Notes: generated by a model not told the origin, from the letters alone. Positions 1-33,375 are shown, numbered from the stretch's first letter. The stretch is 34,786 nt of DNA from an uncultured archaeon (GCA_964362395.1 CAYIER010000001.1:1-34786); one strand, 5' to 3'. Made by a program: numbers and translations.

Positions 1-85
1 ACTGGCAAAAGAACAATTAATTAATATTCACCTGCCAGTTTGTTACGCCGCATACATGTGCCATCTTCGATGACACGATAATATC
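1..85 (+). repeat. Dispersed palindromic repeat, copy D (module X truncated by window edge, plus module Y)
   Basis: ACTGGCAAAAGAA...TTCACCTGCCAGTTTGTT followed by GCATACATGTGCCATC-TTC-GATGACACGATAATAT; same layout as 12369-12465. Confidence 0.75.
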
Positions 86-125
86 AATATACTTTTTTTG
101 AATATAATGAAAAAACAGAAAAAAT

Positions 126-275
126 TCAGATCTGCATCGGCTGGTTTGGGGCCATTGTTTCCTTTGGAGCGAGCTGCTGCGCGTATTCCTTGAGGTGAGT
201 GATGACCTTTTCCAAAAGCACCCTGTTGCGGAGGCTCTTCTCTTTAACATACATTTTTGTCAGGTCGTTTAGCAT
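126..275 (-). CDS. Small hypothetical protein (about 49 aa)
   Basis: ATG at 275 within ORF 126..359; co-oriented downstream of hjc; no recognisable motif. Confidence 0.4.
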   Translation of the reverse strand: MLNDLTKMYVKEKSLRNRVLLEKVITHLKEYAQQLAPKETMAPNQPMQI

Positions 276-363
276 GATTTCGATTTCAATCAAGAAAAAG
301 CCACTAAAATAAAAAGTGCAAAAACGTTTTTTTAAACCCAACGGAAAATGCCAAGACACAAAT

Positions 364-771
364 TCAGGCTTCTAGCCTTGACTGCTCGCCCAAAACAACC
401 CTCAAGTCCAGCGCACAACCCTGCGCCTTTTTGAGCGAAATGACATAGTTTTTCCCTGCCTTGACAAAGTCTTTTGGGTTCAAAAACAAAAAACCCTTCC
501 TGGGCACTTTCCACACCACAAAAAACTCGGCATTGGATCGCCTTGCCCACCCAATCTGTCCATCCATCTGCTCGATTGAAAGGTTAAGGTAAGCAGCACC
601 CCATGCCTTGCACTCAAAAACAAGCTTTTTGGTCTTGCTTAACGCAACAATGTCAGGCATTGGCAATGAGTTCTTGCCGCTTCCGGCAACGCGCACCACA
701 GAGAGACCGCGGCCATAAAGCTCTTTTATAAGCTCCCGCTCAGCATTTGCGCCCTTCTGGTACCTCGTCAT
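364..771 (-). CDS. hjc: Archaeal Holliday junction resolvase Hjc
   Basis: KGANAEREL...VVRVAGSG...PDIVA...FECK, the Hjc PD-(D/E)XK signature. Confidence 0.93.
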   Translation of the reverse strand: MTRYQKGANAERELIKELYGRGLSVVRVAGSGKNSLPMPDIVALSKTKKLVFECKAWGAAYLNLSIEQMDGQIGWARRSNAEFFVVWKVPRKGFLFLNPKDFVKAGKNYVISLKKAQGCALDLRVVLGEQSRLEA

Positions 772-930
772 TAGCAAAAAAACCCTTTTTTGAACAAAAA
801 ACTGCTTTTCTGCAATATTAATATATGTTTTCTTTTATAAGTCTTAATAGGAATCAGGCTCAAAAGGAGCCATTAAAGGTTTAAAAAAAATCGATTGCAA
901 AAAAATTGTGTTTGCAATTAATTGTTTTTA

Positions 931-1194
931 ATGGAACAGGAAATTTTTTTGAACTTAAAAGTTGTTACGAATTCGAAGGAATTCAAAGTAACGGGTTTTG
1001 ACCCGCACACAAAAACTTTGAAAGTCAAAGTGAAAGCAAAACCCCAAAAGGGGCAAGCAAACAGGGAAATTGAACAAAAGCTCTCAGAGTTTTTTTCAAG
1101 CGACACAAAAATTGTTTTTGGACACAAAAGCAACAACAAAAAAATCCAAGTTCAAAGCGGCAAAAAAGCTTTGGGAAAAATAAAAAACCTTTAA
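931..1194 (+). CDS. DUF167/UPF0235 (YggU-like) protein
   Basis: LKVKVKAKPQKGQANREI...IVFGHKSNNK pattern. Confidence 0.85.
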   Translation: MEQEIFLNLKVVTNSKEFKVTGFDPHTKTLKVKVKAKPQKGQANREIEQKLSEFFSSDTKIVFGHKSNNKKIQVQSGKKALGKIKNL

Positions 1195-1243
1195 CACTCC
1201 TTTTAAAAAAAAACCTGATTCTTTTGGCAAATATCAAAAGGAG

Positions 1244-2590
1244 ATGATTAAATTGGCTAAAACTTACATTAGCGCAGTCAAATACTTAGTGAAAATAAAA
1301 TTCGAAATCCATGGGGTCGTAGACAAGCCGGACATCATTGGCGCAATCTTTGGGCAAAGCGAGGGGCTGTTAGGCGAAGAAATGGACCTAAAAGAACTCC
1401 AAAAAAACGGCAAAATCGGCCGAATTGAAATAAACCACGAACACATGCTAGGAAAAACGGTCGGCGAAATCCTTCTACCAAGCAACATGGACATGGCTGA
1501 AACCACAGTCCTTGCGGCAACGATTGAATCCGTGGAAAAAGTCGGCCCATACGAGTCACAATTCCAAATAGTTTCCCTAGAAGACACACGCACAGAAAAA
1601 AGGGACGAAATCAAAAAGCGGGCACAAGAACTGCTCAAAAAATTCAAGCAAACCATTGAGCCGGACACAGTTGAAATAACCGAATCAGTCCGCGAAGAGG
1701 CACGGACAGGCGACCTGCAGTTAATTGGCCCAGACAAGTTGGCGGCAGGCCCAGAAGTGCAGGCAAGCGAAGAAATAATCGTCGTCGAAGGGCGCGCAGA
1801 CGTGATAACACTGCTGAAAAACCACATAAAAAACGCAGTTGCAATGCAAGGCTCAACAATCCCAAAAACAATCCTTGAACTCTGCAAGACAAAAAAAGCA
1901 ACAGTGTTTGTTGACGGCGACCGCGGCGGGGAAATGATTGCAAGAAACTTTTTGCTTGCAAGCCGCGCAGAATTCATTGCACGCGCACCGGACGGCAAAG
2001 AAGTCGAAGAGCTCACAAGAAAAGAAATAATACAGTCACTGCGAAGACGGGTGACGCCACAAGAATTCACGGAACAGACACAAAAAGGGCCCCAGCAAAG
2101 GGGAATGCAAAGGTTCGAACCAAGGCCAAGAGAAGGCTTCCGCCAAGACAGAAGACCGCCATTTAGGCAAAGGCCAGACAACAGAAGGCCGTTTGGACAA
2201 AGACCAAGGCCCGAATTCGAGGAACAAAGAAGGTTTGACCACCCACGCATGGAACCACGAGAAGAAGCGGAGACGTTCACAAGAAAAGACCTCGAGCACC
2301 TTCCGACAAAAACGGAGCAAGACAAATTCGTCCCCATACTAAAAGAACTCAAAGGAAAAAGCACCGCAAAACTCTTTGACCACGAAATGAAAGAAATCGA
2401 CGAAGTCCAGGTAAAAAACCTTGTCGGGGAAATGTCAAAAAAGAAAGGGGTCAACGCAGTGGTCTTTGACGGAATAGTGACAAAAAGGCTCGTTGCGGCA
2501 GCAGACAAAAACGAAATAAAAATAATCGTCGGTGTAAGGAAAGGCGAACTGGAAAAATCAAACGCAAGAGTGCTGACTTTTGCGAATTAG
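1244..2590 (+). CDS. dnaG: Archaeal DnaG (TOPRIM protein, exosome-associated)
   Basis: GVVDKPDIIGAIFGQSEGLLG, VVEGRADV, FVDGDRGG, RAPDGKEVEEL, C-terminal FDGIVTKRL. Confidence 0.96.
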   Translation: MIKLAKTYISAVKYLVKIKFEIHGVVDKPDIIGAIFGQSEGLLGEEMDLKELQKNGKIGRIEINHEHMLGKTVGEILLPSNMDMAETTVLAATIESVEKVGPYESQFQIVSLEDTRTEKRDEIKKRAQELLKKFKQTIEPDTVEITESVREEARTGDLQLIGPDKLAAGPEVQASEEIIVVEGRADVITLLKNHIKNAVAMQGSTIPKTILELCKTKKATVFVDGDRGGEMIARNFLLASRAEFIARAPDGKEVEELTRKEIIQSLRRRVTPQEFTEQTQKGPQQRGMQRFEPRPREGFRQDRRPPFRQRPDNRRPFGQRPRPEFEEQRRFDHPRMEPREEAETFTRKDLEHLPTKTEQDKFVPILKELKGKSTAKLFDHEMKEIDEVQVKNLVGEMSKKKGVNAVVFDGIVTKRLVAAADKNEIKIIVGVRKGELEKSNARVLTFAN

Positions 2591-2638
2591 AACAACCGCT
2601 GCGCCAGTTGATACCCTTACGGGCACAAGCAACGCAGT

Positions 2639-2670
2639 TGTGTCCCGTCTAACGACGGGATGATAATATT
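2639..2670 (+). repeat. Dispersed repeat, copy F (module Y only)
   Basis: TGTGTCCCGTC-TAAC-GACGGGATGATAATATT, perfect 7-bp stem, downstream of dnaG. Confidence 0.75.
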
Positions 2671-2722
2671 TTTGAATTAAAATAAAAAAAAATATAATAA
2701 TGGGCTAAAACAATAAAATGGC

Positions 2723-3145
2723 TTATCTTCTGATTGCCCACTTTTTTCCTTTTTTTTCAGGCAAAACCCTTTCAGATTCCTCAATAGGCAAAACAAGGTC
2801 GCCTGTTTTGTAAATCAGCCAGCCGATGAACAAAACCGCAAGCCAAACCAAAACATTGGCAATCGGGCCAAGCAAAACACCCCAAAACTGGCGCATTGAA
2901 AGAGCTGACTGGTCAACCCGCACATAAAGGCCAGTGGACTTAAAAGCAATGTCCTGGCAATAAAAATGATCCACGCCAGAATCATGCAGGCAACTGTCAA
3001 CTTCCTTGAGATTGTCCCAAGAATTAAACATCAAAGCGCTTGCCTGAATGAAATACAAAAGCGCAGCAAACAAAACAAAGGCACCAATCAATTTAGGCAT
3101 GTGGACATCGCGCCCGCCAACCCTAAAAAACAATAATCTTCTCAT
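2723..3145 (-). CDS. Hypothetical membrane protein (2 predicted TM segments)
   Basis: Two hydrophobic stretches flanking a loop with two Cys; basic C-terminus. Confidence 0.7.
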   Translation of the reverse strand: MRRLLFFRVGGRDVHMPKLIGAFVLFAALLYFIQASALMFNSWDNLKEVDSCLHDSGVDHFYCQDIAFKSTGLYVRVDQSALSMRQFWGVLLGPIANVLVWLAVLFIGWLIYKTGDLVLPIEESERVLPEKKGKKWAIRR

Positions 3146-3377
3146 AGAAAAAAACCGTATTAAATAATGAAAACCAAGTATTTAAAGGTTTTGATGCAAA
3201 AAAGCCAAAAAAACACGCAAAACAAAAAAAAGCAAAAACACGACAACAGCATGATTTTTAACCATTCAACACCCAAAATAAATCTATTGCCAAACAAAAT
3301 CTGGCGGCACTTTGCCCCGCTAAAACGGGGCCATTGCCATCGCAGATGGCAGGAAAGTGCCGGCTGATTTTGCAGCC

Positions 3378-3448
3378 GCGGTTGTGGTTTAGTGGCAGAA
3401 TTCGACCTTGCCAAGGTCGGGACCCGGGTTCGATCCCCGGCAGCCGCA
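3378..3448 (+). tRNA. tRNA-Gly(GCC)
   Basis: Acceptor GCGGTTG/CAGCCGC, anticodon arm CGACC-TTGCCAA-GGTCG, T arm CCGGG-TTCGATC-CCCGG; no encoded CCA. Confidence 0.97.
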
Positions 3449-3463
3449 TAGCCGATTGCATCC

Positions 3464-3549
3464 GGCTGGTTTGCATACATGTACCGCCTTGCGGCGGGAC
3501 GGTAATATTTATGTCCCGTCGCAGACGGGGCGACGTATGTGGTGCCAGC
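3464..3549. repeat. Dispersed repeat, copy E: two inverted module-Y units sharing a central AATATT
   Basis: GGCTGGTTTGCATACATGTACCGCC-TTGC-GGCGGGACGGTAATATT then TATGTCCCGTC-GCA-GACGGGGCGACGTATGTGGTGCCAGC (reverse-complement module Y). Confidence 0.8.
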
Positions 3550-3562
3550 GGGCGCAAACGCT

Positions 3563-3634
3563 GGGCTTGTAGTCTAACGGCCAGGATGCATCGTTTACAC
3601 CGATGAGAAGGAGGTCCGATTCCTCCCAGGCCCA
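3563..3634 (+). tRNA. tRNA-Val(TAC)
   Basis: Acceptor GGGCTTG/CAGGCCC, anticodon arm CATCG-TTTACAC-CGATG, T arm GGAGG-TCCGATT-CCTCC. Confidence 0.92.
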
Positions 3635-3659
3635 TTTTTCAGACAGCGCTGGCAATTTT

Positions 3660-4277
3660 TTAAAACAAAACATTTTTGGCTTCAGACACAACTGCCGAAA
3701 AAACCTCTTTTTTTGGCATGGAAGCATCAATGATTTTAATGTTCTCTTTTGGCAGAATTTTTGGCAGCTGCAAAAACTTTTCGCGCGCCTTTTGCAAAAA
3801 AGCCTCCCTCTCAAAAACATCACGGGCACCACGTGCAGAGCACGCAATCCGTTTCAGCGCAAGCCTTGGGTCAATGTCCAAAACCAAAACAAGCCCGGGA
3901 ACAACCATCCCATCATGCATCTGCAAAATTTTTTCAACAGAAATTCCCTGAACCGACTGGTAAACAACAGTGGAATACTTGAAGCGGTCACACAAGACAA
4001 TTTTTCCTTCATTCAAAGCAGGCAAAATTTCGTGCTCCAAGTGAAACTCGCGATCCTTCACGTAAAGCTCCAAAAACTTTTGCGCATTGTTTTTTGGGCT
4101 TGACTCGCTTTTCAGCATTTCGCGAAGCTCTTTCCCAAAAGGGCTCTGCGAAGGCTCCGCTGTCAAAAAAACGCGCCCGGCAAAACCGTTTTTTTCCAAA
4201 AAAAGCTTCAGCTTTTTTGCCATCAAGGACTTGCCTGCGGCATCCAGCCCCTCAAAAACGACAAAATTTTTCTCCAA
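3660..4277 (-). CDS. tmk: Thymidylate kinase (probable TTG start at 4277)
   Basis: VFEGLDAAGKS P-loop, TAEP, VLCDRFKYSTVVYQ, LDIDP. Confidence 0.94.
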   Translation of the reverse strand: MEKNFVVFEGLDAAGKSLMAKKLKLFLEKNGFAGRVFLTAEPSQSPFGKELREMLKSESSPKNNAQKFLELYVKDREFHLEHEILPALNEGKIVLCDRFKYSTVVYQSVQGISVEKILQMHDGMVVPGLVLVLDIDPRLALKRIACSARGARDVFEREAFLQKAREKFLQLPKILPKENIKIIDASMPKKEVFSAVVSEAKNVLF

Positions 4278-4359
4278 GCAAAAACACCCGCAAAAACCAA
4301 TCAAAAGCAAATAAAGAGCAAAAACGTTTAAAAAAGCCTTCAAACAAAATAATCAATAC

Positions 4360-4572
4360 GCAGTTGTAGTCTAGCGGCAGGATAGGAGCCTTCCAACAAC
4401 TGGCACACCAGCAACAAATTGGCAAGTGAAAAATGGCTTAAATATTTCTTTTGCCATTTTGTTGGTTGACAGTGCGTACATGTCCCGCCTGTCGGCGGGG
4501 CGGCAATACTCAAATTTTAATAAAAAAATTGGAAGAAAGCTCTTGACCCGGGTTCGAATCCCGGCAGCTGCA
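4360..4572 (+). tRNA. tRNA-Gly(TCC) with 142-nt intron (4396-4537) at canonical position 37/38
   Basis: 5' exon GCAGTTG...GGAGCCTTCCA (4360-4395); 3' exon AGCTCTTGACCCGGGTTCGAATCCCGGCAGCTGCA (4538-4572); BHB has CTTC/GAAG 4-bp helix, CAA and AAA 3-nt bulges, CAA/TTG outer helix. Confidence 0.93.
4412..4510 (+). repeat. Dispersed repeat, copy A (X+Y) inside the tRNA-Gly intron
   Basis: CAACAAATTGGCAA...TTGCCATTTTGTTG then GCGTACATGTCCCGCC-TGTC-GGCGGGGCGGCAATACT; about 80% identical by hand alignment to the reverse complement of 5792-5888. Confidence 0.9.
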
Positions 4573-4620
4573 TTGGGATTATTTTGTGATTACGGTTTAC
4601 TGAAAAAAACAGGTGATTTT

Positions 4621-4944
4621 ATGGAATGCCCAATATGCAATAAGAAGATGGTTAAAGTAAAAGAACCGTACAGCTACGGAAATGTAAAGCTCGGAGAATT
4701 TGAAGCAGAAAAGTGCAACAACTGCAACGAAGTTTTTTTCACAGAAGAAGCCTCAGACAAAATAGACCAAAAAGCAAAAGAAACGGGGATTTGGGGAATC
4801 GGACAAAAAGCAAAAATTGGTTACTCAGGAAACTCGTTGATTTTAAGAATCCCGAAAAAAATTGCCGACTTTTTGCACTTAAAAAAAGGCGAGGAAATAT
4901 TTGTCAGGCCAGAAGGAGAGCACAAGTTAGTGGTTGAAACATAA
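4621..4944 (+). CDS. YgiT/MqsA-type zinc finger fused to AbrB/MazE/SpoVT DNA-binding domain (antitoxin-like)
   Basis: CPIC...KCNNCNEVFF plus GYSGNSLILRIPKKIADFLHLKKGEEI; AGGTGA RBS just upstream of ATG 4621. Confidence 0.85.
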   Translation: MECPICNKKMVKVKEPYSYGNVKLGEFEAEKCNNCNEVFFTEEASDKIDQKAKETGIWGIGQKAKIGYSGNSLILRIPKKIADFLHLKKGEEIFVRPEGEHKLVVET

Positions 4945-4978
4945 ACACAAAATAAAAGAATTATTTGAATTATAATAA

Positions 4979-5485
4979 ATGCCTGTTGAAAAAATGCCCG
5001 AAGGAAAATTTGTCGAGTTGGTTGATGCAAGCGACAAAGTGGTTGGAGCCGCGCCAAGAAAACTAATACACAAAAAGCCACTGCCGCACAGAGCAGTGCA
5101 TGTGTGGGTCTTTAACGCACTCGGCGAACTGTTTTTGCAAAAGCGCCCAAACACAATGGAATTGTGCCCGTCAATGTGGGATTCAAGCGTGGGCGAGCAC
5201 GTTGAAATCGGCGAGACATACAGGCAGGCGGCACAGCGGGGGCTAAAAGAAGAATTGCACATCCGTGGCACAAAACCAAAGCGGCTTTCAAAAAAACTCG
5301 TAAAGCACAAAAACGCGCACGAAATGATAACGCTGTTTGCAACAACCTTTGGCGAAAAAATTAAAATAAACAAAAAAGAGCTGGCGGGCGGAAAGTTTTT
5401 CTCAAAAGCCGAAATCATCGAACTTGTGAAAAAGAAAAAAACAACCCCTTTTTTTAACGTTTTTTTCAAGAAGTGTTTTAAATGA
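4979..5485 (+). CDS. NUDIX hydrolase, IPP isomerase type 1/YfcD-like
   Basis: LVDASDKVVG...HRAVHVWVFN...LFLQKR...WD..VGEHVEIGETYRQAAQRGLKEEL; lacks the catalytic Cys motif of true Idi1. Confidence 0.85.
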   Translation: MPVEKMPEGKFVELVDASDKVVGAAPRKLIHKKPLPHRAVHVWVFNALGELFLQKRPNTMELCPSMWDSSVGEHVEIGETYRQAAQRGLKEELHIRGTKPKRLSKKLVKHKNAHEMITLFATTFGEKIKINKKELAGGKFFSKAEIIELVKKKKTTPFFNVFFKKCFK

Positions 5486-5793
5486 AGCAAAATGAAATAC
5501 AAAAAATCGCGCTCGAGCGGATTTACCGCCTGTTTGAGCTTGCAGGAAAAATGCAGCCAAAAGAGCCGGAATTAAGCAAAAGATATGTTGCACTGGCAAG
5601 GAAAATAGGCTCAAAAAACAAGGCAACGATTCCATGGGGGCTAAAAAAAAAGTTCTGCAAAAAATGCGGGGCATTTTTGAAAAACGGGAAAAACTCAAAA
5701 GAAACCAAACAAGAGCCATTCCTTTTGGTCAAATGCATTGAATGCGGGTTTGAGAGGAAAATTTCGCTCAAAGAGCCAAAAACAGGCCAATAA
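5482..5793 (+). CDS. rnp4: RNase P protein component 4 (Rpp21)
   Basis: IALERIYRLFELA...RYVALARKIG...FCKKC...KCIECG zinc ribbon. Confidence 0.93.
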   Translation: MKQNEIQKIALERIYRLFELAGKMQPKEPELSKRYVALARKIGSKNKATIPWGLKKKFCKKCGAFLKNGKNSKETKQEPFLLVKCIECGFERKISLKEPKTGQ

Positions 5794-5890
5794 TATTACC
5801 GCCCCGCTGCAAAGCGAGGCATGTATGCGCTGCCAACCAACAAATTGGCAAAAGAAGCATTTCACTATTATTCACTTGCCAATTTGTTAC
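5792..5890 (-). repeat. Dispersed repeat, copy B (Y+X)
   Basis: AATATTACCGCCCCGCT-GCAA-AGCGAGGCATGTATGC then perfect 13-bp IR AACAAATTGGCAA (5839-5851)/TTGCCAATTTGTT (5876-5888); terminal AATATT overlaps the rnp4 stop codon. Confidence 0.9.
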
Positions 5891-5946
5891 AGGCGCAAAA
5901 GTTGACACAAAACAATAAATATATCAAAACACAATAATTATCCTTG

Positions 5947-6360
5947 ATGAACAAAGGGCAAGGGTCAATAGAATACCTGCTGATTTTGGGCGGAGTAATA
6001 ATGGTTGCGGTGATTGTAATTGCATTAATAGTCAACATTGCAACGCCGGCAGGCACGCAAACAAAAAATGACACAGCAGACCTGTTTTGCTCAAGAAAAC
6101 CCATCACGGGATGTTGTGGGCAAACGGTAGCCGTGCAAAGCACCACATACACATGCTATATGAAATCTGACAACACACTATGCGCAACACAGTCAGCAAC
6201 AAGCCTTGTTCATTGCTGCAATAGTTTAACTGACCTAGGAGAAACAGACTTGGATTGCGGCGGGACATGCGGAAAAACATGCATTTCCGGAAAAACCTGC
6301 ACCCAAAACTCAGACTGTATTTCAGGAACCTGCACAGGCACACCGCTCAAGTGTGCCTGA
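5947..6360 (+). CDS. Class III signal peptide (type IV pilin-like) protein with Cys-rich C-terminus
   Basis: KG|QGSIEYLLILGG + hydrophobic helix; ETDLDCGGTCGKTCISGKTCTQNSDCISGTC disulfide-rich motif. Confidence 0.85.
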   Translation: MNKGQGSIEYLLILGGVIMVAVIVIALIVNIATPAGTQTKNDTADLFCSRKPITGCCGQTVAVQSTTYTCYMKSDNTLCATQSATSLVHCCNSLTDLGETDLDCGGTCGKTCISGKTCTQNSDCISGTCTGTPLKCA

Positions 6361-6480
6361 AAACAAACCTTTAAAAGCTTTTTTTGACGGTTTTTTGTAA
6401 TAAGACTCTAATTATTGTGATTAGAGTTCGGTGCCTTTTTTGGCATCTGGAACAAAACTGCTCCGAGAGGAGGAAAACAA

Positions 6481-7038
6481 ATGGGCATATTTGACGTAGA
6501 GCCAGCGGTTCTGATAAAGGAAATGGCAAAAGATTTCAAGGGAAAATTCAAGCAGCCGCAGTGGGCAGAATGGGTAAAAACAGGAACCCACGCTGAGCGC
6601 GCACCCCAAAGCAAGGACTGGTTTTTTGAACGGGCAGCCTCAGTTCTGTACCGGGTGTACAAGGACGGGCCGGTTGGGACAGAAAGCTTAAGGACCTATT
6701 ACGGCGGAAGAAAAAAACGCGGAGTACGGCCGGAAAAGAAAAGAAAAAGCAGCGGAAAAATAATCCGGACCTGCCTGCAAACTTTGGAAAAAGAAGGGTT
6801 CATAAAAAAAGGGAAAACCGGCAGGGCAGTCACAAGCAAAGGTGAAAGTTACCTTAACAGGCTTGCAAAAGACGCAAAAGCAGTGCATGAAAAGGAAACA
6901 AAAGAAAAAGCCGAGCAAAATCGGCAAAAAGAAGCAGACGAACTGGCAAAACGGGCACAACAGGAAACAATAAAGCAAAGCGAAAAAAAAGAGGGATTCC
7001 GGGAACAAAAAAAGCCGCAACAAAAGCAGCAAAAATAA
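6481..7038 (+). CDS. rps19e: 30S ribosomal protein S19e with charged C-terminal extension
   Basis: PQWAEWVKTG.HAERAP...DWFFERAAS...YGGRKKRGVRP; GGAGG RBS. Confidence 0.96.
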   Translation: MGIFDVEPAVLIKEMAKDFKGKFKQPQWAEWVKTGTHAERAPQSKDWFFERAASVLYRVYKDGPVGTESLRTYYGGRKKRGVRPEKKRKSSGKIIRTCLQTLEKEGFIKKGKTGRAVTSKGESYLNRLAKDAKAVHEKETKEKAEQNRQKEADELAKRAQQETIKQSEKKEGFREQKKPQQKQQK

Positions 7039-7053
7039 CCGGGGCTTTTAAAA

Positions 7054-7338
7054 ATGGATGAAAAAAAACTGGGGGAATTAAGGGCACAAAAAGAAAAAGA
7101 AATGCAGACGCAAATGCAGATTGAAAGCCTTCTTCGAAAAACTTTGACAGATGAAGCAAGGCAGAGGCTAAACAACGTGAAGCTGGTAAAAAACGAGGTT
7201 TACCTCAAGGCACTGCAGCCGCTCTTTATGCTTATACAACAAGGGCAGGTGCAGGAAAAAATTTCCGACCAGGAATTAAAATCAATCCTTGAAAACATTA
7301 GCGGCTCAAAAAAAGAAATCAACATCAGGAGAAAATAG
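7054..7338 (+). CDS. PDCD5/TFAR19-family DNA-binding protein
   Basis: LTDEARQRLNNVKLVK...ISDQELKSIL...INIRRK; conserved position after rps19e. Confidence 0.9.
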   Translation: MDEKKLGELRAQKEKEMQTQMQIESLLRKTLTDEARQRLNNVKLVKNEVYLKALQPLFMLIQQGQVQEKISDQELKSILENISGSKKEINIRRK

Positions 7339-7339
7339 C

Positions 7340-7588
7340 ATGAGCAAAAACAGGACACAGGAAAAAAAAGAATTCCTCATTGCAAGCAGGAAAGCAATAG
7401 GTGCAAGCCTCACAAACGCCCCCGTCTGGGCAATGCAAAAGGCAGGGAAAAGGATCTGGAACAAAAAGCAGAAACGCCACTGGCGATCAACCGAGTTTGG
7501 AAAGCTGTTTGCAAAAAAGCAGGCAGAACAGGGAAAAGTCCGCAACAAAAAACGGGTTAAAAGCGGGTGGAAGAAAAGGAAAGATTAA
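7340..7588 (+). CDS. rpl39e: 50S ribosomal protein L39e, extended
   Basis: APVWAMQK...KRHWR motif; position before rpl31e. Confidence 0.85.
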   Translation: MSKNRTQEKKEFLIASRKAIGASLTNAPVWAMQKAGKRIWNKKQKRHWRSTEFGKLFAKKQAEQGKVRNKKRVKSGWKKRKD

Positions 7589-7590
7589 AA

Positions 7591-8016
7591 ATGAAGCAAA
7601 ACGAATTCGAATCAGTAATTTCTTTAAGAAAGGTTTTTGGTTTCCCGAAAACAAAAAGGACAAGGAAAGCAATCAATGAAATAAAGGCGTTCGCGTTAAA
7701 GCACGCAAAAAACGTGCAGGTGAGCATCTCAGAGGAAGTAAACCGGCTGCTTTTAGAAAACTCCCGAAACATCCCTAGGAAAATAAACGCGGTGCTTGTG
7801 AAAAACGACAAAAAAGTCACGGTTTATTTGCAGGGCGGAAAACAGTTAAAGGAAGACCAAAAAAGGGAAGCGGAAGAAAAGAAAAAGAAAGAGCAAAAAG
7901 AGAAGGAAGAAAAAGAAAAGCCAAAAGAAGAGGAAACGGAACAAAAAGAAAAGCTCAAAGACAAAAAAGAGAAAGAAAAAGCCGCAAAATCCCTTGAAAT
8001 GCAGGGGAGAAAATAA
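7591..8016 (+). CDS. rpl31e: 50S ribosomal protein L31e with K/E-rich tail
   Basis: ISLRK...PKTKRTRKAINEIKAF..KH...ISEEVN...PRKI; synteny. Confidence 0.9.
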   Translation: MKQNEFESVISLRKVFGFPKTKRTRKAINEIKAFALKHAKNVQVSISEEVNRLLLENSRNIPRKINAVLVKNDKKVTVYLQGGKQLKEDQKREAEEKKKKEQKEKEEKEKPKEEETEQKEKLKDKKEKEKAAKSLEMQGRK

Positions 8017-8679
8017 ATGAACATTTTCAAGACAACAATCAATTCAAGCCCTTTTGTCGGGGTGTTTTCCTGCGCAAGCGAAAAATTCGCCCTCGCCCCA
8101 ATGTCCACGCCGCAAAAAAAAGTCGACGCAATCGAAGAACACCTCCAAGTGAAAGTGGTCAGGGCATCGCTTGCAAACTCTTCACTGTTGGGCGTACTGT
8201 GCGTGCTGTTTGAAGACAAAATAATCATTTCTGAAATAGTCGAGGAAAGAGAAAAAAAATTCCTTGAAAAAAACGGCCTAAAAGTAAAGCAAATAGACGG
8301 CTATACTGCAATTGGAAACCTTATTTCACTCAACAAAAATGGCGGAATTGCAAGCACGCTGCTTTCACCAAAGAATGTAAAGGAAATAGAGGAATTTTTT
8401 GGCGTGAAACTGGTGCAAAAAGACTTTGCGCACTCAAACCTTGCTGGCGCAGCCGCACTCGCAACAAATAAAGGCTTTATCGTGCACCCAAATATCAGCA
8501 AGGCAGAATTTATGGAAATGCAAAAAATATTCCAAGTCGAAGGGAACCCCACAACCGCAAACTATGGCGACTCATTTATCGGAAACGACGTTGTTGCAAA
8601 CTCAAAAGGGGCAATGGTCGGCGAAATAACAACCACGTTTGAACTGACAAGAATTGACGAAGCACTGAGGGGAAACTGA
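8017..8679 (+). CDS. eif6: Translation initiation factor 6 (aIF6)
   Basis: SPFVGVF, TAIGNLI, ATNKGFIVHP, TANYG, VANSKGAMVG..TT.FELTRIDEAL. Confidence 0.95.
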   Translation: MNIFKTTINSSPFVGVFSCASEKFALAPMSTPQKKVDAIEEHLQVKVVRASLANSSLLGVLCVLFEDKIIISEIVEEREKKFLEKNGLKVKQIDGYTAIGNLISLNKNGGIASTLLSPKNVKEIEEFFGVKLVQKDFAHSNLAGAAALATNKGFIVHPNISKAEFMEMQKIFQVEGNPTTANYGDSFIGNDVVANSKGAMVGEITTTFELTRIDEALRGN

Positions 8680-8680
8680 C

Positions 8681-8881
8681 ATGAAAGAAAAGGAAACAAA
8701 GGAAAAAAACTTTGAAATAAATGGAACATTCATTGAAAAAAAGAGCAAAAAAACGTTCACAAAAACAATCAGCGCACAAAACAAAAACAGGGCAAAAGAA
8801 AAACTGCTCACGGTTTTTGGCTCAAAGCAGGGGATAAAGAGAAGGTGCATTTTTATTGAAGACATCAAAGAGGAAAACTAG
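8681..8881 (+). CDS. rplX: 50S ribosomal protein L18Ae/LX
   Basis: FEINGTF...FTKTISA...AKEKL...FGSKQGIKR..IFI; synteny eif6-rplX-pfdA. Confidence 0.9.
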   Translation: MKEKETKEKNFEINGTFIEKKSKKTFTKTISAQNKNRAKEKLLTVFGSKQGIKRRCIFIEDIKEEN

Positions 8882-8884
8882 CAT

Positions 8885-9334
8885 ATGGCAGAAAAAAAAG
8901 TGCAGATGACACAAGAACAGCTGTTCTCTGCGTTCGCCGGAGAAAACCAGCGCCTCGAAGACCTCAACCAGCGAATCAATATGCTCATAATGGGCTTAAA
9001 TGAAATCACCATGGCACTTTTGTCAATGGATGCAATAAAAAAAGAGAAAGACAAAATCATGGTGCCGCTTGGCGCGGGAATTTTCCTGCAGGCACAAACA
9101 GAGGACAACGAAAACGTGGTCTTTGCGCTCGCAGGGGAAGTAATGAAAACAAAAAAACTCGAAGAGGCAAAACAAGAGATTGAAAAAAGAAAGGAATCGC
9201 TTGAAAAACTGCTTGAAAACACAAAAAGAGAGCACCACAGGACTGCCACAAACGTAAACGCGCTGACAGAAGTCATCAGGAAAGGGCAGGAATTTATTCA
9301 ACAGCAAAGAATGGGGACGATAAAAGGGCTTTAA
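8885..9334 (+). CDS. pfdA: Prefoldin alpha subunit
   Basis: Coiled coils flanking IMVPLGAGIFLQA...VVFALAGEV..KK.LEEA. Confidence 0.9.
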   Translation: MAEKKVQMTQEQLFSAFAGENQRLEDLNQRINMLIMGLNEITMALLSMDAIKKEKDKIMVPLGAGIFLQAQTEDNENVVFALAGEVMKTKKLEEAKQEIEKRKESLEKLLENTKREHHRTATNVNALTEVIRKGQEFIQQQRMGTIKGL

Positions 9335-10546
9335 ATGTTTGACTTTTTAAAGAAAAAAGTTTCCGTTTTTGCCGAAAAAATAAAGCAGACAATTGAAAAA
9401 AAACAAGGGCAAACCGTGCAACAAGAACCGGCTGCACAAGCGCCAAAGCAAACCATTTTAGAACAACAGCCGCCAATTGCAAAGCAGGCAAAGCAACAGG
9501 AACACGAAGGGCAGCCGGCAAAAACACAGCCGAATGCAAAAACAGGGGAACTGAAAACCACAAGGGCGGATGAACCAGCCAAAAAAGAAATTCCAGCTGC
9601 AATTCACAAGGAAAAACCGCAACACAAAATACAGATAGTTCAGGATGACAAGCGCGAACTTGCGGCAAAAGTCGGCATCACAAAAAAACTCAAAGGGCTG
9701 TTTACTGGGACAATAACTGTTTCAAAACAAGACATCAAACACTTTTTGGAAGAATTCGAGCTGGCACTCCTTGAAGCAGACGTTGAAGCAGGGACGGCCC
9801 GCGAAATTACAGAAAAAATCGGAAAAGACCTGGAAGGAAAACAAGTCCCCACAGGCACTGATGTTTCAGGGTTTTTAAAAGACGAAATCAAAAAAGTGCT
9901 CCTGCAAATAATGCAGACAAAAAAAATCGATTTTTTGAAGGAAACGGAAAAGAAAAAACCGTTTGTCGTGCTGTTTCTTGGGCCAAACGGCGCCGGAAAA
10001 ACAACCACCATTGCAAAAATCGCAAACTATTTGAAGGAAAATGGAAAAACCACAGTACTAGCCGCGGCAGACACCTTTCGGGCGGCATCCATTGAACAGC
10101 TGGAAACGCATGCAAGCGCAATCGGCGTAAAAGTTATAAAGCAAAAATACGGGGCAGACCCCGCAGCGGTCGCATTTGACGCAGTGGCTTATGCAAAAGC
10201 AAAAAACCTGGACACCGTGCTGATTGATTCGGCCGGAAGGCAGGAAACAAACAAAAACCTCTTAAAGGAACTCAAAAAAATTGAGCGCATCGCAAAGCCT
10301 GACCTCAAAATATTCATCGGCGAATCATACGCAGGCCAAGCGCTTTTAAGCCAGGGAAGCGAATTTGACAAAGAACTTGACTTAGACGGGTTTATTCTGA
10401 CAAAAATGGATGTTGACTCAAAGGGGGGAACCGCCATTTCCCTGCTGCACGTGCTCAAAAAGCCCATAATTTTTGCCGGAACAGGGCAAAGCTATGATGA
10501 CCTGGCGGAATTTGACCCAAAATTCATCGTGGACCGCATAATTTGA
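9335..10546 (+). CDS. ftsY: SRP receptor FtsY
   Basis: MFDFLKKK start, ALLEADV, GPNGAGKTTTIAK, DTFRAA, DSAGR, TKMD, GTGQSYDDL. Confidence 0.97.
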   Translation: MFDFLKKKVSVFAEKIKQTIEKKQGQTVQQEPAAQAPKQTILEQQPPIAKQAKQQEHEGQPAKTQPNAKTGELKTTRADEPAKKEIPAAIHKEKPQHKIQIVQDDKRELAAKVGITKKLKGLFTGTITVSKQDIKHFLEEFELALLEADVEAGTAREITEKIGKDLEGKQVPTGTDVSGFLKDEIKKVLLQIMQTKKIDFLKETEKKKPFVVLFLGPNGAGKTTTIAKIANYLKENGKTTVLAAADTFRAASIEQLETHASAIGVKVIKQKYGADPAAVAFDAVAYAKAKNLDTVLIDSAGRQETNKNLLKELKKIERIAKPDLKIFIGESYAGQALLSQGSEFDKELDLDGFILTKMDVDSKGGTAISLLHVLKKPIIFAGTGQSYDDLAEFDPKFIVDRII

Positions 10547-10609
10547 GGAAAAAAACCAGAATCATTAAAAAAGCTAATGCAGGAAAAATAACAAAAGAGG
10601 TGTATTTTA

Positions 10610-10897
10610 GTGAAAGTAAGCGAACTACAATCAAAAACCCCCGTGCCGGAACTGGTTGGGGAAATTGTTTCAATCGGCGAGCCAAGAGAATTTGCAAACG
10701 AAAGAGGAAGCGGCCGCGTATGCGACGCAGCACTCAAGGACAAATCAGGCGAAATAAAGATCTCCCTATGGAACGAGCAGATAGACCAGGTAAAAGAAGG
10801 CGACAAAGTAAAAATAGAAAATGGCTGGTGCAGCGAATTTAAGGGCCAAAAACAGGTAAGCACAGGAAAAATGGGAAAACTTACAGTGGTGAAGTAA
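10610..10897 (+). CDS. Single OB-fold ssDNA-binding protein (SSB/RPA-like)
   Basis: EPREF...VCDAALKDKSGEIKISLWNEQ...GDKVKIENG; GAGGTG RBS before GTG. Confidence 0.9.
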   Translation: MKVSELQSKTPVPELVGEIVSIGEPREFANERGSGRVCDAALKDKSGEIKISLWNEQIDQVKEGDKVKIENGWCSEFKGQKQVSTGKMGKLTVVK

Positions 10898-10901
10898 ACT
10901 T

Positions 10902-11552
10902 TTAAAGGTCAGGATGCCTCATGTGAAGCCTGGTCACGTCACCTTTCCCTTTCCCACCCAATTTTGCCATCTCGCCCTTCACAAACCCGTGAAAGTGGCG
11001 CTCGCTGACATTCTGTTTGGTTAAGACCCCAAGTTGAACCAAATGGTTCAGGTCAAACTCCAAACTAATAAATTGCCTTTCAGAAACTCTTTTCACAAGG
11101 TCATAAGAAGGGTGATTCAGCACATTCTTGATGTGCAAGCGAAGACGGTCTGCATTCGCACGGTAAATTCCGCCAAAAGAAACAACCCAGAGCGTGTTTG
11201 CGTCATGGTTATGCCAGTCCCCAAGACGCAGCTTCAAAAAAATTTTTCCCGCCAAAGACTCCTCTGGAGTGATAGTTTTTACCTCGATTTTTTCCGGCTG
11301 GCCACGAATCAGCTTAAGTTTATTGACAAAATCATAGCCCTTATTTGAATGCGGCATTTTTGACCAATGGGGGTGCATTGACTGCAAAAATTCCTCGCCC
11401 TTTTGCCCCCACCACCTTGCACGCCTTGAAGCAGCCAGCCTTGCAAGTTCACGGTCAGACCTAAGCACTTGCAGAAGCCTGTTTGTCTGGGGGTCCATGG
11501 CATGTTTTACCCGTTCAATTTCAGGAATCTTCCTTTTGCCGTGCGGCCGCAT
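10902..11552 (-). CDS. Orphan PD-(D/E)XK restriction-endonuclease-like protein
   Basis: GQKGEEFL...NKGYDF...KIEVKT catalytic-type spacing; basic N-terminus. Confidence 0.65.
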   Translation of the reverse strand: MRPHGKRKIPEIERVKHAMDPQTNRLLQVLRSDRELARLAASRRARWWGQKGEEFLQSMHPHWSKMPHSNKGYDFVNKLKLIRGQPEKIEVKTITPEESLAGKIFLKLRLGDWHNHDANTLWVVSFGGIYRANADRLRLHIKNVLNHPSYDLVKRVSERQFISLEFDLNHLVQLGVLTKQNVSERHFHGFVKGEMAKLGGKGKGDVTRLHMRHPDL

Positions 11553-11758
11553 TCTACCAACAAACACGCATTTGGTTAATAATATGATTTTGGCTGCAAT
11601 TTGGCCCAAACCCCACCCAAAGATAACTTTAAAAACGGTTTAAGGCACATATATACTAGGATTGGGTCAATACTTGCTGATTTTTCTTACTCTTTTTTCA
11701 AAGCGTATAAAAAAAGGCTGCTTGATTCAACTCGTCAATTAAAGGAGGAATAATTTAA

Positions 11759-12136
11759 ATGACATTCAGTAATTTCAACCAAAATAGGTTCCAAAAGCCC
11801 ATTCCGGTAAAGGAAGGGGAAGAATATGACGTTACAATTGAGAACGTTGGAGAAAAAGGAGATGGCATAGCAAAAGTAAAAGGCTATGTGATAATCGTCC
11901 CGCAAACAAAAAAGGGCGAAAGAGTCAGAATAAAGGTAAACGCTATCCGGGGAAAAGTTTCATTCGGCGAAGTCATAGAAAGGCTCGAAGGAGAAACAGA
12001 GGAAGGGGAAGGCGAACCAGAAGCGGAAACGGAAGAAAAAAACGAAGAAAGCTCTGAGGGCTCAGATGACTCCGACAACATAGAGGACAGCGGCGAAGAC
12101 ACGGAGGACAGCTTCGACGAAGACGAGGAGAAGTGA
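11759..12136 (+). CDS. Single TRAM-domain RNA-binding protein with acidic tail
   Basis: PVKEGEEYDVTIENVGEKGDGIAKVKGYVIIVPQTKKGERV; GGAGG RBS. Confidence 0.93.
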   Translation: MTFSNFNQNRFQKPIPVKEGEEYDVTIENVGEKGDGIAKVKGYVIIVPQTKKGERVRIKVNAIRGKVSFGEVIERLEGETEEGEGEPEAETEEKNEESSEGSDDSDNIEDSGEDTEDSFDEDEEK

Positions 12137-12143
12137 AAGCAGC

Positions 12144-12356
12144 ATGGACGAAGACAAAGAACTCGAAATGCTGATGAAGCCATCAGAAGAGTTAAGGTTA
12201 AAGCTCCTAAAGCAAGAGTTTCGCCTCCGAAAAAAACAGCCGGAAGCATGGACAAAAACAAAATTCAGGAAATACGCGAACTTTAGGACAAAAAGGAAAG
12301 AGCCACTCACAGAAGAAATCCAAGTGGCAAAAATAATGGAAAAAAAAGTGGCTTAA
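12144..12356 (+). CDS. Small basic hypothetical protein
   Basis: ATG 7 nt after the TRAM gene stop; 70 aa; no motif recognised. Confidence 0.5.
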   Translation: MDEDKELEMLMKPSEELRLKLLKQEFRLRKKQPEAWTKTKFRKYANFRTKRKEPLTEEIQVAKIMEKKVA

Positions 12357-12368
12357 GCCGGTTGCGTT

Positions 12369-12465
12369 AACACTTTGGCAAAGAAACAACCCTTTTTTAT
12401 TCACTGCCAAAGTGTTGCAGGCTGGTTCGCAGACGTGCCCCATCTTAGGATGAAACGATAATATT
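12369..12465 (+). repeat. Dispersed repeat, copy G (X+Y)
   Basis: Perfect 12-bp IR AACACTTTGGCA/TGCCAAAGTGTT with internal AAGAA..TTCAC; then GGCTGGTTCGCAGACGTGCCCCATC-TTAG-GATGAAACGATAATATT. Confidence 0.82.
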
Positions 12466-12580
12466 TTTTAATTAATGCACTAAAAAGCGCTTTTTTTCTT
12501 AACTAATTGTCAAATGAGTTTAAATTATGCCCAAGCCTGCCAGCTATTTAATTGTTTTTCTTCAATAATTTTGTGTTTCT

Positions 12581-13930
12581 ATGAGCCTTGGAGAGCAGTT
12601 AAGGAAGGCTATTGAGCGCCTGCGGAACAGTTCAGGGCTTGACCGTGAAACCGTAAAAGAGGCAGTCAAAGACATCCAGCGGGCACTTATTGGTTCCGAT
12701 GTTTCGGTTGACCTTGTATTAAAACTAAGCAAAGAGATAGAGGACGCGGCATTCGTTGACCTCCCAATGGGAATCAACCGCCGCGAGCACATACTCAAAA
12801 CAACCTATGACTTGCTTGCAGAATTGTTGGGTGGCTCGCCGCAGCCGCCACAAAAGCCAAAAAAAATACTTTTGATCGGGCTCTTTGGGTCCGGAAAAAG
12901 CACAACTTGCGGAAAGCTGGCAAAATGGTACGCAAAGCGCGGGTTAAAAGTGGGGTTGATTGCTGCGGACACTTTTCGCGCGGCAGCGGTTGAACAATTG
13001 CGGCAGGTGGCAGAAAAGGCAAATGTGGAATTTTTTGGGCTGACTGCAGAAAAAAATGCAGCAAAAGTTGTAAGGGAGGGGCTTAAAAAATTTGAACAAT
13101 TTGACCTGATAATCTGTGATTCGGCGGGAAGAAGTGCACTTGACAGCGTGCTTGTAAAAGAAATAAAGGAAATCAACTCTGTTTTTTCGCCTGACCAGCG
13201 CTGGCTTGTCCTTGGCGCAGACATTGGGCAGGCTGCAAAAAAGCAGGCAAAGGCATTCCATGAAAGCGTGCAGGTGAACGGCGTCATAATCACAAAGCTT
13301 GATGGCTCCGCAAAGGGCGGCGGGGCGCTTGCAGCGTGCCGTGAAACAAACTCGCCGGTTTACTTTGTCGGATTGGGAGAAAAACTTGATGACTTCCAGG
13401 AATTTGATGCAACACGCTACCTCAGCAGAATAATGGGCTACGGCGACCTAGCGGCGCTTCTAGAAAAGGCAAAAGAAATACAGGAAGAGTCAGGACTTGG
13501 CATTGAGGGAATGCTTGGCGGCGAATTCAACCTTGATATTTTTTACAAGCAACTAGTGTCTGCACGAAAGCTCGGGCCGCTAAGCAAGGTCGCGGAAATG
13601 ATGGGGCTTGGCTCGCAGGTCCCAAAAGAAATGCTTGAAGTCGGCGAAGAAAAGCTTGAAGGATTTGCGGCAATGATGGATTCAATGACAAAAAAAGAAA
13701 AACAAAACCCCGAGCTGTTGAACAAAAGCAGGATTGCGCGCATTGCAAAAGGAAGCGGGAAAACACAGGAAGACGTGCGCGAACTCCTGAAAAACTACAG
13801 GACAACCGCGAAAATGTTTTCACAATTCAAAAACATTGACGAAAAAAAACTCGAAAAAGGCGGAATGCAGGGGCTCTTGAAAAAATTCGGCGGGCTTGGA
13901 AAGAAAAAAAAGAAAATAAAATTCAGGTGA
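12581..13930 (+). CDS. srp54: Signal recognition particle protein SRP54
   Basis: DIQRALI..DV, GLFGSGKSTT, DTFRAAA, DSAGR, TKLDGSAKGGGAL; M domain with DSMT..E..NP...SRIARIAKGSG. Confidence 0.97.
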   Translation: MSLGEQLRKAIERLRNSSGLDRETVKEAVKDIQRALIGSDVSVDLVLKLSKEIEDAAFVDLPMGINRREHILKTTYDLLAELLGGSPQPPQKPKKILLIGLFGSGKSTTCGKLAKWYAKRGLKVGLIAADTFRAAAVEQLRQVAEKANVEFFGLTAEKNAAKVVREGLKKFEQFDLIICDSAGRSALDSVLVKEIKEINSVFSPDQRWLVLGADIGQAAKKQAKAFHESVQVNGVIITKLDGSAKGGGALAACRETNSPVYFVGLGEKLDDFQEFDATRYLSRIMGYGDLAALLEKAKEIQEESGLGIEGMLGGEFNLDIFYKQLVSARKLGPLSKVAEMMGLGSQVPKEMLEVGEEKLEGFAAMMDSMTKKEKQNPELLNKSRIARIAKGSGKTQEDVRELLKNYRTTAKMFSQFKNIDEKKLEKGGMQGLLKKFGGLGKKKKKIKFR

Positions 13931-13943
13931 ATAAATGAATAAA

Positions 13944-14040
13944 AACATTAATGGACAGCCCCCGTCAAAGACGGGGCAAAAGCGCCACAACAAATTGGCG
14001 AAAGAAAATTGGGCAAATTGTTCAATTGCCAATTTGTTGC
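13944..14040 (-). repeat. Dispersed repeat, copy C (Y-like hairpin + X)
   Basis: CCCCGTC-AAA-GACGGGG then CAACAAATTGGC (13988-13999)...GCCAATTTGTTG (14028-14039). Confidence 0.85.
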
Positions 14041-14077
14041 AGATTTAGCGGGAGAAAATAAATTAAAATTCAGGTGA

Positions 14078-33187: not shown

Positions 33188-33375
33188 AAAAGTTCTCCTC
33201 CGTGTATCGCATATGCGTTAGCTATTTTTTAATTAAACCCATTAACAATTTAAAAACCATTCATATATTGAAAGCAAAAAAAACAAACACCCACCCAAAC
33301 CGGTTTCCAAAATAACAAGCCAGCCCCAAATAATATCAGCCAAAGAAGTATATAAATGTTCTTTTTTAACGTTAA

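Follow-up and report, generated by a model that had tools for sequence, protein, structure and literature searches.

Background

The portion of the REP literature considered here (PMC3733652 and related papers) documents REP systems in bacterial phyla only, and the REP superfamilies, as presented in PMC3733652, carry an unpaired GTAG or CGTC tag at one end of the hairpin. In Thermoproteales, the 'transposed' tRNA introns (Fujishima et al. 2010, as summarized in PMC4090602 and in a 2026 Asgard preprint) are related introns found in different isoacceptors of one genome; in these summaries, intron gain is thought to occur at the DNA level, by a mechanism stated to be unknown (PMC4090602; section 2.5 of the 2026 preprint). 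Here we describe a family of short, non-coding palindromic repeats, for which we propose the name tRNA-linked palindromic elements. The closest known form of these elements is the bacterial REP/REPIN/BIME class, and the closest known form of those copies that reside in introns is the transposed Thermoproteales introns. The family was noticed in a stretch of 34,786 nucleotides from an uncultured archaeon (GCA_964362395.1, CAYIER010000001.1:1-34786; hereafter, the window), which represents the opening 34.8 kb of a 42-kb contig. The source assembly (hereafter G000) consists of 146 contigs with a total length of 1.14 Mb, has a GC content of 44% and is 90% complete. The relatives of this genome found through SRP54 carry the name Candidatus Iainarchaeum (DPANN), and the public runs that contain the window are labelled as groundwater metagenome.

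We consider, with moderate confidence, that the elements are a lineage-specific, non-autonomous mobile repeat that is copied into new sites in a structure-dependent manner and has a tropism for tRNA gene ends and introns. The comparisons below involve four relatives from the same family (G001-G004), among which G001 belongs to the same genus as G000 and is 60% complete, and G002 is a closed genome. Profile searches were seeded solely from the window copies, with the cut-off of E<=0.01, and gene context is taken from our own rough model of open reading frames (ORFs).

Architecture of the repeat unit

In the aligned copies, a unit of ~65-150 nt consists of a hairpin at the 5' end (L), a short TTAC or TTGC linker, a pairing segment, the motif ATACRTG, a second hairpin (Y), the motif CGRTAATAT, and a tail, in that order. 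The L hairpin has a stem of 4-6 bp, mostly AAC..GTT or AGC..GCT, and a loop of 6-8 nt, and the pairing segment, 4-6 nt immediately 5' of ATACRTG, is complementary to this loop. The loop:segment combinations fall into several classes, including TTGCG:CGCA, CTGGC:GCCAG and CAGAT:ATCTR in G000, with AGGT:ACCT and TTCCGT:ACGGAA added in the relatives. The Y hairpin reads TCCCGYC-N4-GRCGGGA, and the tail that follows is variable in length, finishing with ATTACNAT and an A run in 12 of the 86 Y units of G000. In most intergenic units, L follows an A run, and a run of six or more A residues is located within 70 nt downstream of 42 of the 86 units, compared to 24% of intergenic windows.

The first-pass annotation of this DNA described a bipartite repeat made of modules X and Y. 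Both modules exist, but X is not an equal partner of Y; rather, it is a 50-nt hairpin that is nested between L and the pairing segment. In all 28 adjacent pairs, X is located on the 5' side of Y (17 in the same orientation and 11 flipped), and 27 X copies lack a Y neighbor within 60 nt. Module Z, a third hairpin, occupies either the same position between L and the segment or the loop of Y. A variant of the second hairpin, Y' (ACGTCG-hairpin-CATAAATATT), is found in tail-to-tail Y/Y' dimers, in which both L ends point outward and the whole forms a long palindrome; besides the dimer at 3449-3561 in the window, such arrangements are present on contig C9, in an intron on contig C62 and at locus L150 of G001. 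A further AT-rich module of ~90 nt (starting with ATATAGCAAACTGC...) is joined to Y tails or takes the place of L on four G000 contigs (C17:~4010, C87:~4270, C40:~10120 and C32:~2870).

The fold of the unit is supported by covariation. In 20 simple units, the positions of the L stem, the loop:segment helix and the Y hairpin are 90% paired, compared to 75% in shuffled sequences (none of 500 shuffles reaches the observed value) and 30-41% in slid controls; a caveat is that the structure was derived from the very sequences, related to one another, on which it was tested. Double changes are seen at 4 of the 5 L pairs, 4 of the 5 loop:segment pairs and 4 of the 8 Y pairs, that is, at 12 of 18 pairs altogether, and because related copies are not independent, these counts, as well as the counts of polarity given below, overstate the number of events. 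The X stem comprises 15 pairs (a 12-bp outer and a 3-bp inner helix); 631 of its 666 cells (95%) are Watson-Crick, and five pairs show compensatory variants. Paired changes are also seen between orthologous copies: the tRNA-Ser(GCT) introns of G000 and G002 differ in this manner in the L stem, the loop:segment helix and three hairpin pairs, and in G003 and G004, the copies located upstream of one and the same gene differ by a C-G to T-A change. In minimum-energy folds, the loop:segment pairing appears as a nested helix that encloses X or Z. The dimer at 3449-3561 folds into one long hairpin on either strand (-55 and -51 kcal/mol, z-scores of -3.5 and -4.2), and in general, both strands of the units fold about equally well.

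Abundance and distribution

The profile searches identify 55 X loci and 80 Y loci in G000, with the number of Y loci increasing to 86 after one iteration. A covariance model scan of the genome and its relatives, an approach suggested in the first-pass annotation, recovers further copies, with 80 matches in G000 alone (best E-value of 4e-18), and all three helices of the unit covary as described above. The seven repeat loci initially noted in the window all contain the modules and are found again by the window-seeded profiles along with many more. Zones within 150 nt of a contig end account for 3.8% of the genome and harbor 14 of the 86 Y and 9 of the 55 X loci, which indicates that the assembly breaks at repeats, and the true copy numbers are probably higher than those counted. 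Independent contigs in the public data of two studies cross all seven window loci and differ by 1-nt indels only, so that the repeats are not an assembly artefact. Among contigs of four runs compared to positions 1-14500 of the window, no allele lacking an element was found; one low-depth joint of position 4383 to 4544 (depth 2, side 26) is not interpretable.

According to the covariance model, there are 94 copies in G001, 50 in G004, 23 in G003 and 13 in the closed genome G002. Besides G000, G001, G003 and G004, G028 also ranks as a high-copy genome. In other families of the order, 9 of 35 genomes contain 1-11 copies, and across a sample of the phylum, 17 of 150 genomes have a match at E<=1e-5, mostly 1-2 copies. 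A search of viral contigs with the exact degenerate Y pattern gave no matches.

Association with tRNA genes and introns

The G000 assembly contains 42 tRNA genes (ARAGORN, long introns allowed), and in 7 of these, profile matches lie inside the intron; three more introns contain Y' or variant units that were recognized by eye. The introns seen are located at or near the canonical position 37/38. The case within the window is a gene at 4360-4572 (plus strand) that was missed by ARAGORN with default settings and by Rfam, and was called tRNA-Trp(CCA) when introns were allowed. Its two exons, 4360-4395 and 4538-4572, together comprise 71 nt that are colinear with the intronless tRNA-Gly(TCC) of G002 (54 of 71 positions identical), and the junctions, as read from the sequence, conform to a bulge-helix-bulge motif, with the helix formed by 4390-4393 and 4532-4535, the bulges at 4394-4396 and 4536-4538, and the outer helix formed by 4397-4399 and 4529-4531. 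Because the exons are colinear and the junctions fit this motif, the gene is identified as tRNA-Gly(UCC) with a 142-nt intron at 4396-4537. An exon pattern search for this gene in five relatives detected nothing; the G002 ortholog was then found by ARAGORN. The 90% complete assembly yielded no tRNA-Trp gene; accepting the tRNA-Trp call as it stands would leave the assembly apparently without tRNA-Gly(UCC). Thus, standard tRNA finders miss or misname genes with introns that are built of repeats.

As judged from its sequence, the 142-nt intron is, almost end to end, an L-X-Y unit with its tail: L at 4397-4411, X at 4412-4463, the segment and Y at 4465-4513, followed by an A-rich tail, with the final 9 nt of the intron pairing with the anticodon loop. 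The repeat that had been delineated at 4412-4510 is therefore genuine but is only a part of this intron. Intron content also differs among orthologous tRNA genes: tRNA-Ala(CGC) has a 144-nt L-Y intron in G000, no intron in G002, and an 86-nt L-Y intron in G017, a member of another family.

Outside introns, the units that flank tRNA genes show a strong polarity: in 11 of 14 cases in G000 and 6 of 6 in G002, it is the L end that faces the tRNA, so that a unit at a tRNA 3' end is on the same strand as the gene and a unit at a 5' end is on the opposite one. Of the three exceptions, two are outer halves of dimers, the inner half of which fits the rule. In the closed G002 genome, 9 of the 12 matches are within a tRNA gene or not more than 150 nt away from one. 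Placement immediately after genes and at or within tRNA genes, reminiscent of REP and BIME, had been pointed out in the first-pass annotation and is borne out by these observations.

Copies of tRNA 3' ends, 20-25 nt long and extending from the T arm to the discriminator, are found behind some units (C68:1030-1380, C9:2296-2510) and have the appearance of pseudo-fragments. For the tRNA-Gln copy, 19 of 20 positions are still identical in the sister species G001 (L150).

Insertion into empty sites and target duplication

The spacer 3' of the SRP54 gene is 5-12 nt long in all four relatives (G001-G004), whereas in the window, it contains a 124-nt unit (13931-14054, minus strand). This unit of a variant subfamily (hairpin at 13955-13972, X at 13989-14039 and an L-like part at 14040-14054) separates SRP54 from the next gene and is flanked by a ~22-nt duplicate of the gene end: the left copy at 13908-13930 (plus strand) is the end of SRP54 itself and the right copy is at 14055-14080 (plus strand; the two constitute repeat family D9), so that the target copies are 147 nt apart. 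The site 3' of DnaG and the spacer between the Rpr2 and pilin genes are each empty in both relatives that retain the same neighbor gene (G001 and G002). Thus, empty orthologous sites were found at three of the three syntenic loci compared, and together with the target duplications, they bear out the proposal of the first-pass annotation that the element behaves as a non-autonomous mobile one. The insertion boundaries are only approximate because the relatives are ~70% identical to G000 at the protein level. In G004 (L051), the region 3' of DnaG contains ~300 nt of other hairpin repeats (e.g., CCACCGGTC-ATAGA-CCGGTGG, present twice), in the spacer that is empty in G001 and G002; the small repeat families at such sites may thus differ among relatives.

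Unique host sequence is also duplicated around units at the 3' ends of tRNA-Met (25 nt) and tRNA-Gln (21 nt; 20 nt at the tRNA-Gln site of G001), on contigs C4 (24 nt) and C22 (20 nt), where each duplication includes a host TATA box, and in relatives (24 nt in G003/G004 and 32 nt in G022). In these cases, the element begins exactly with the L stem, and its opposite end is variable. Overall, insertion duplicates 12-32 nt of the target, leaving a sharp L end and a ragged tail end, and new copies are located in short AT-rich spacers, at tRNA gene ends and at the intron position of the anticodon loop.

The sharp L end, the ragged tail, the variable length of the duplications and the A runs at the junctions favor a copy-in mechanism. 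A donor would be copied into a staggered or stalled site, either by a host polymerase that switches templates, often at A runs, or by an unrecognised integrase, and the fold might be needed by the copying step or by the carrier strand. Copies would persist where they are harmless, namely in spacers, tRNA flanks and tRNA introns, with the splicing endonuclease presumably removing those that sit in introns. If copies survive harmlessly in introns, the elements would be a source of tRNA intron sequence in this lineage. A stronger form of this idea, for which we make only a tentative case, is that the family exemplifies a working route of archaeal tRNA intron gain, whereby a repeat is copied into tRNA ends and anticodon loops without an encoded or linked transposase, through replication or repair enzymes of the host or through a so far unrecognized class of enzyme, and those copies that come to lie at position 37/38 turn into introns, since the splicing endonuclease cuts them out. 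If this is the case, one family would have been caught at all stages, from intergenic insertion through tRNA trailer to full intron.

Several observations weigh against the mobile copy-in interpretation. Clear target duplications are a minority: in a systematic scan, 4 of 68 units reach or exceed the threshold score, compared to about one in controls with mismatched flanks, and the other examples were found by eye. Many units share merely an A run at both ends, and such repeats could belong to the element rather than to a duplicated target. No fresh insertion polymorphism, intermediate or enzyme was seen, and the contigs of the two studies carry the window loci unchanged; given that G000 is 90% complete, a mobilizer gene may be unassembled. 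The compensatory changes seen between orthologous copies speak for selection that acts on the fold once a copy is in place, and a purely selfish element would have no need of such selection. Finally, the closed genome keeps the family at a low copy number and almost solely at tRNA genes, a pattern of persistence that would also suit a host function.

Candidate mobilizers and alternative explanations

The first-pass annotation likened Y to the subterminal hairpins of IS200/IS605 elements and proposed mobilization by a Y1/RAYT-type enzyme. Under such a model, a Y1 HUH transposase (RAYT or IS200-type) would recognize the single-stranded Y hairpin and move the REP/REPIN-like elements in trans, which would agree with the conserved hairpin flanks, inverted dimers and mosaic arrays that resemble REP, REPIN and BIME; furthermore, the loop:segment pairing beside a hairpin recalls the guide pairing of IS608-type ends, and an L-Z-Y unit is located just 3' of the one Y1 gene in G000. 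However, the product of this gene is an ordinary IS200 protein (103 bits with the IS200 model, 43 bits with the RAYT model, the cut-off of which is 80), the unit abuts the 3' hairpin of tnpA on the other strand and on one flank only, and the hairpins adjacent to this tnpA are unlike Y. Among 40 genomes, the repeat and Y1 are both present in 5, the repeat alone in 9 (including the closed G002) and Y1 alone in 6; in particular, G001 (94 copies) and G002 (13 copies) show no Y1 gene, and G005 has five Y1 genes and no repeat. None of the 11 Y1 loci of the relatives has a Y or X match within 1.5 kb. Mobilization by Y1/RAYT was rejected on the grounds of the score below the RAYT cut-off, the lack of co-occurrence and the absence of Y or X at the Y1 loci of the relatives; the 12-32 nt target duplications do not fit the peel-and-paste mechanism of Y1 enzymes, and the unpaired GTAG or CGTC tag is missing as well, which makes this explanation very improbable. 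A SINE-like (short interspersed nuclear element) route, in which a transcript with a defined end at L would be copied into nicked A-rich targets, would account for the sharp L junctions, the variable tail ends and duplication lengths, and the A runs before L and downstream of the units (42 of 86 units, compared to 24%). Nevertheless, it has little probability, given that no reverse transcriptase (RVT_1) was detected in G000 (90% complete) or in any of the five family genomes, including the closed G002, that among the repeat-holding genomes only G009 and G022 encode one, and that the insertions at tRNA ends follow a single A rather than an A run.

A more probable alternative, although one that we still regard as unlikely, is that each unit encodes a small structured host RNA, as a gene or cassette. 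Such an RNA would be co-transcribed with tRNAs and set free by RNase Z, RNase P or the splicing endonuclease, and the high copy number in this genus would be secondary. In favor of this view, the L hairpin starts 0-2 nt from the 3' ends of tRNAs or from 5' splice sites, always with the same polarity, 9 of the 12 copies in the closed genome are tRNA-linked, orthologous copies evolve in a compensatory manner, the tRNA-Ala(CGC) intron contains an L-Y unit in two families (G000 and G017), and the G.U pairs and GUAA loop of Z are confined to one strand, namely the strand opposite to the L-to-Y direction. Apart from Z, which is the only module with a clear preference, counts of wobble and A.C pairs indicate no consistent strand (18 G.T and 32 A.C in the Y hairpin, a balance in L), and between genes, units occur in both orientations, 29 in the same and 13 in the opposite direction relative to co-directional neighbors. 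Moreover, all three syntenic protein-gene sites are empty in the relatives, and the nested insertions, flipped X modules and target duplications are transposon traits. There is also no match to the elements in Rfam, which, along with the literature, agrees with the first-pass claim that the family is undescribed: only two tRNAs in the window pass the gathering scores, and the remaining matches at E<=1 (0.00041-0.6) are far below the thresholds. The strongest of these, to tmRNA at 4489-4575 (E-value of 0.00041, 18.5 bits against a threshold of 47), overlaps the 3' end of the tRNA-Gly(UCC) intron and exon 2 and, as we interpret it, stems from the 3' half of the tRNA and not from the element; the remaining two, at 2651-2809 and 3286-3379, partly overlap units or lie outside them. 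The least probable possibility, bordering on the implausible, is that the units are movable regulatory cassettes, with CGRTAATAT functioning as a transcription factor B recognition element (BRE) and TATA box, an initiator (ATTACWAT) ~25 nt downstream, and a hairpin followed by a T run as a terminator. The constant spacing from TAATAT to ATTACNAT and the A run in a subset (12 of 86 units) and the T runs at the ends of some units are in line with this idea, but the distance from Y to the next co-oriented start codon ranges from 2 to more than 1000 nt without a peak, some units point into convergent gene ends (e.g., the one at 5789), the host promoters inside the duplicated targets read TTTAAAAA rather than TAATAT, and the ATTAC motif occurs 21 times in the genome, with 11 occurrences in unit tails.

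Among other candidate mobilizers, TnpB, DDE_3 and Cas1 were not found in G000, although at 90% completeness such genes may have been missed. An ORF of 533 aa located between inverted units on contig C21 was considered as a potential autonomous element and rejected: 35 of 40 relatives carry it as a conserved single-copy gene, and it is therefore not element-specific. The protein (L132:271-1869, minus strand) matches no Pfam family; by eye, we take its N-terminus to resemble the N-terminal regions of family B DNA polymerases. Another ORF, between tandem units on contig C17, is GatD. The sole IS200-type gene (L001:1474-1899, contig C117) is a solo tnpA without tnpB, with GC-rich hairpins on both sides.

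Other loci in the window

The window starts within a unit (1-117, plus strand), of which a flipped X (1-44), the segment with the Y hairpin and CGATAATAT (43-88), and an A-rich tail are left. An L-Z-Y unit (2591-2680, plus strand; Y hairpin at 2643-2660) directly follows the DnaG stop codon at the site that is empty in G001 and G002; the previously noted repeat at 2639-2670 is real but represents only the 3' half of this unit. The two Y units placed earlier at 3464-3549 indeed form a dimer, but the full span is 3449-3561, which fills the entire spacer between tRNA-Gly(GCC) (3378-3448, plus strand) and tRNA-Val(UAC) (3562-3635, plus strand). This tail-to-tail dimer consists of an L-Y unit on the plus strand (3449-3512) and an L'-Y' unit on the minus strand (3503-3561), with covariance model matches at 3447-3510 (plus) and 3503-3566 (minus). 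The L ends face the two tRNA genes, with the first L hairpin starting 1-2 nt past the 3' end of tRNA-Gly(GCC) and the minus-strand L' abutting the 5' end of tRNA-Val(UAC). The leader of tRNA-Gly(GCC) (3290-3377) contains two GC hairpins, CCCCG-CTAAAA-CGGGG and GCCATC-GCAG-ATGGC, which resemble the hairpin of the variant subfamily, and may be a decayed unit that faces the tRNA 5' end.

The unit between the Rpr2 and pilin genes (5789-5905, minus strand) is an L-X-Y, with Y at 5789-5837, X at 5839-5888 and L at ~5891-5905; its Y tail overlaps the Rpr2 stop codon, and the site is empty in G001 and G002. Another L-X-Y unit (12357-12480, plus strand; flipped X at 12369-12417, Y at 12420-12468) is absent from the syntenic spacer of G003 and G004. 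The last locus, initially delineated at 13944-14040, is a repeat as claimed, but one of the variant subfamily on the minus strand, namely the unit that follows SRP54. Profile searches detect no more copies in the window between 14100 and 34786. Two stretches in the region 32595-33713, 941 nt apart and 73-74% identical over 62 and 95 nt (D6 and D16), are probably tandem paralogous genes.

Comparison with known systems

A literature search, conducted mostly at the level of abstracts, yielded no description of an archaeal family of this kind. The elements share with bacterial REP, REPIN and BIME the short GC-rich hairpins with conserved flanks, the presence of many copies in intergenic regions right after genes, the inverted dimers that form long hairpins, the mosaic arrays and the long vertical persistence in a lineage. 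They differ from the REP/RAYT systems in the archaeal host, the lack of a RAYT and the lack of co-occurrence with Y1, and, relative to the REP superfamilies as outlined in the source consulted, in the flanks, with ATACRTG located 5' of the hairpin and CGRTAATAT located 3' of it instead of a GTAG or CGTC tag. The additional 5' hairpin with the loop:segment pairing, the 12-32 nt duplications, the polarity toward tRNA ends and the residence in introns are further distinctions. Compared to the transposed introns of Thermoproteales, as far as the summaries of that work describe them, the similarity consists in closely related sequences in tRNA genes of several isoacceptors; the present family, in contrast, is also found in spacers of protein-coding genes and tRNA flanks, and is associated with empty orthologous sites, target duplications, a defined covarying fold and intron positions at or near 37/38.

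The resemblance to prokaryotic MITEs (miniature inverted-repeat transposable elements) of the DDE type involves the small size, lack of coding capacity, palindromic structure, nested insertions and assembly breaks, and X even has terminal inverted repeats of 12-14 bp. Unlike these elements, the family has no parent insertion sequence (IS) that could be found (DDE_3 was searched, other DDE families were not), the ORF that is bracketed by units is a housekeeping gene, and the duplications are long and variable, with one end sharp and the other ragged; for X copies, no clean target duplication is readable. Integrative elements that target tRNA genes, as well as Ty3 and TRE, which are eukaryotic retrotransposons of tRNA flanks, insert at tRNA ends or into the anticodon loop with fixed polarity and can leave a duplicated tRNA 3' fragment. 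The elements described here differ from these in that no integrase or reverse transcriptase travels along with an element of less than 150 nt, and in that the duplicated sequence differs from site to site, without a fixed attachment core. Elements derived from IS200/IS605 are different in turn: the ends of our units differ from the hairpins of the resident IS, target duplications are present, and no TnpB was found in G000.

These comparisons bear on the origin of archaeal tRNA introns. Given that one family is found in the form of introns, trailers and intergenic insertions, the steps from mobile DNA to intron become comparable within a few genomes. They also bear on the tolerance of repeats in streamlined genomes and on the reasons why such assemblies fragment: this would be a REP-like system in a DPANN genome of 1.1 Mb without a dedicated transposase. 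Against the background of all these systems, the tRNA-linked palindromic elements stand out by a fold that resembles a pseudoknot, their orientation toward tRNA gene ends, their occurrence as entire tRNA introns and the absence of a linked transposase.

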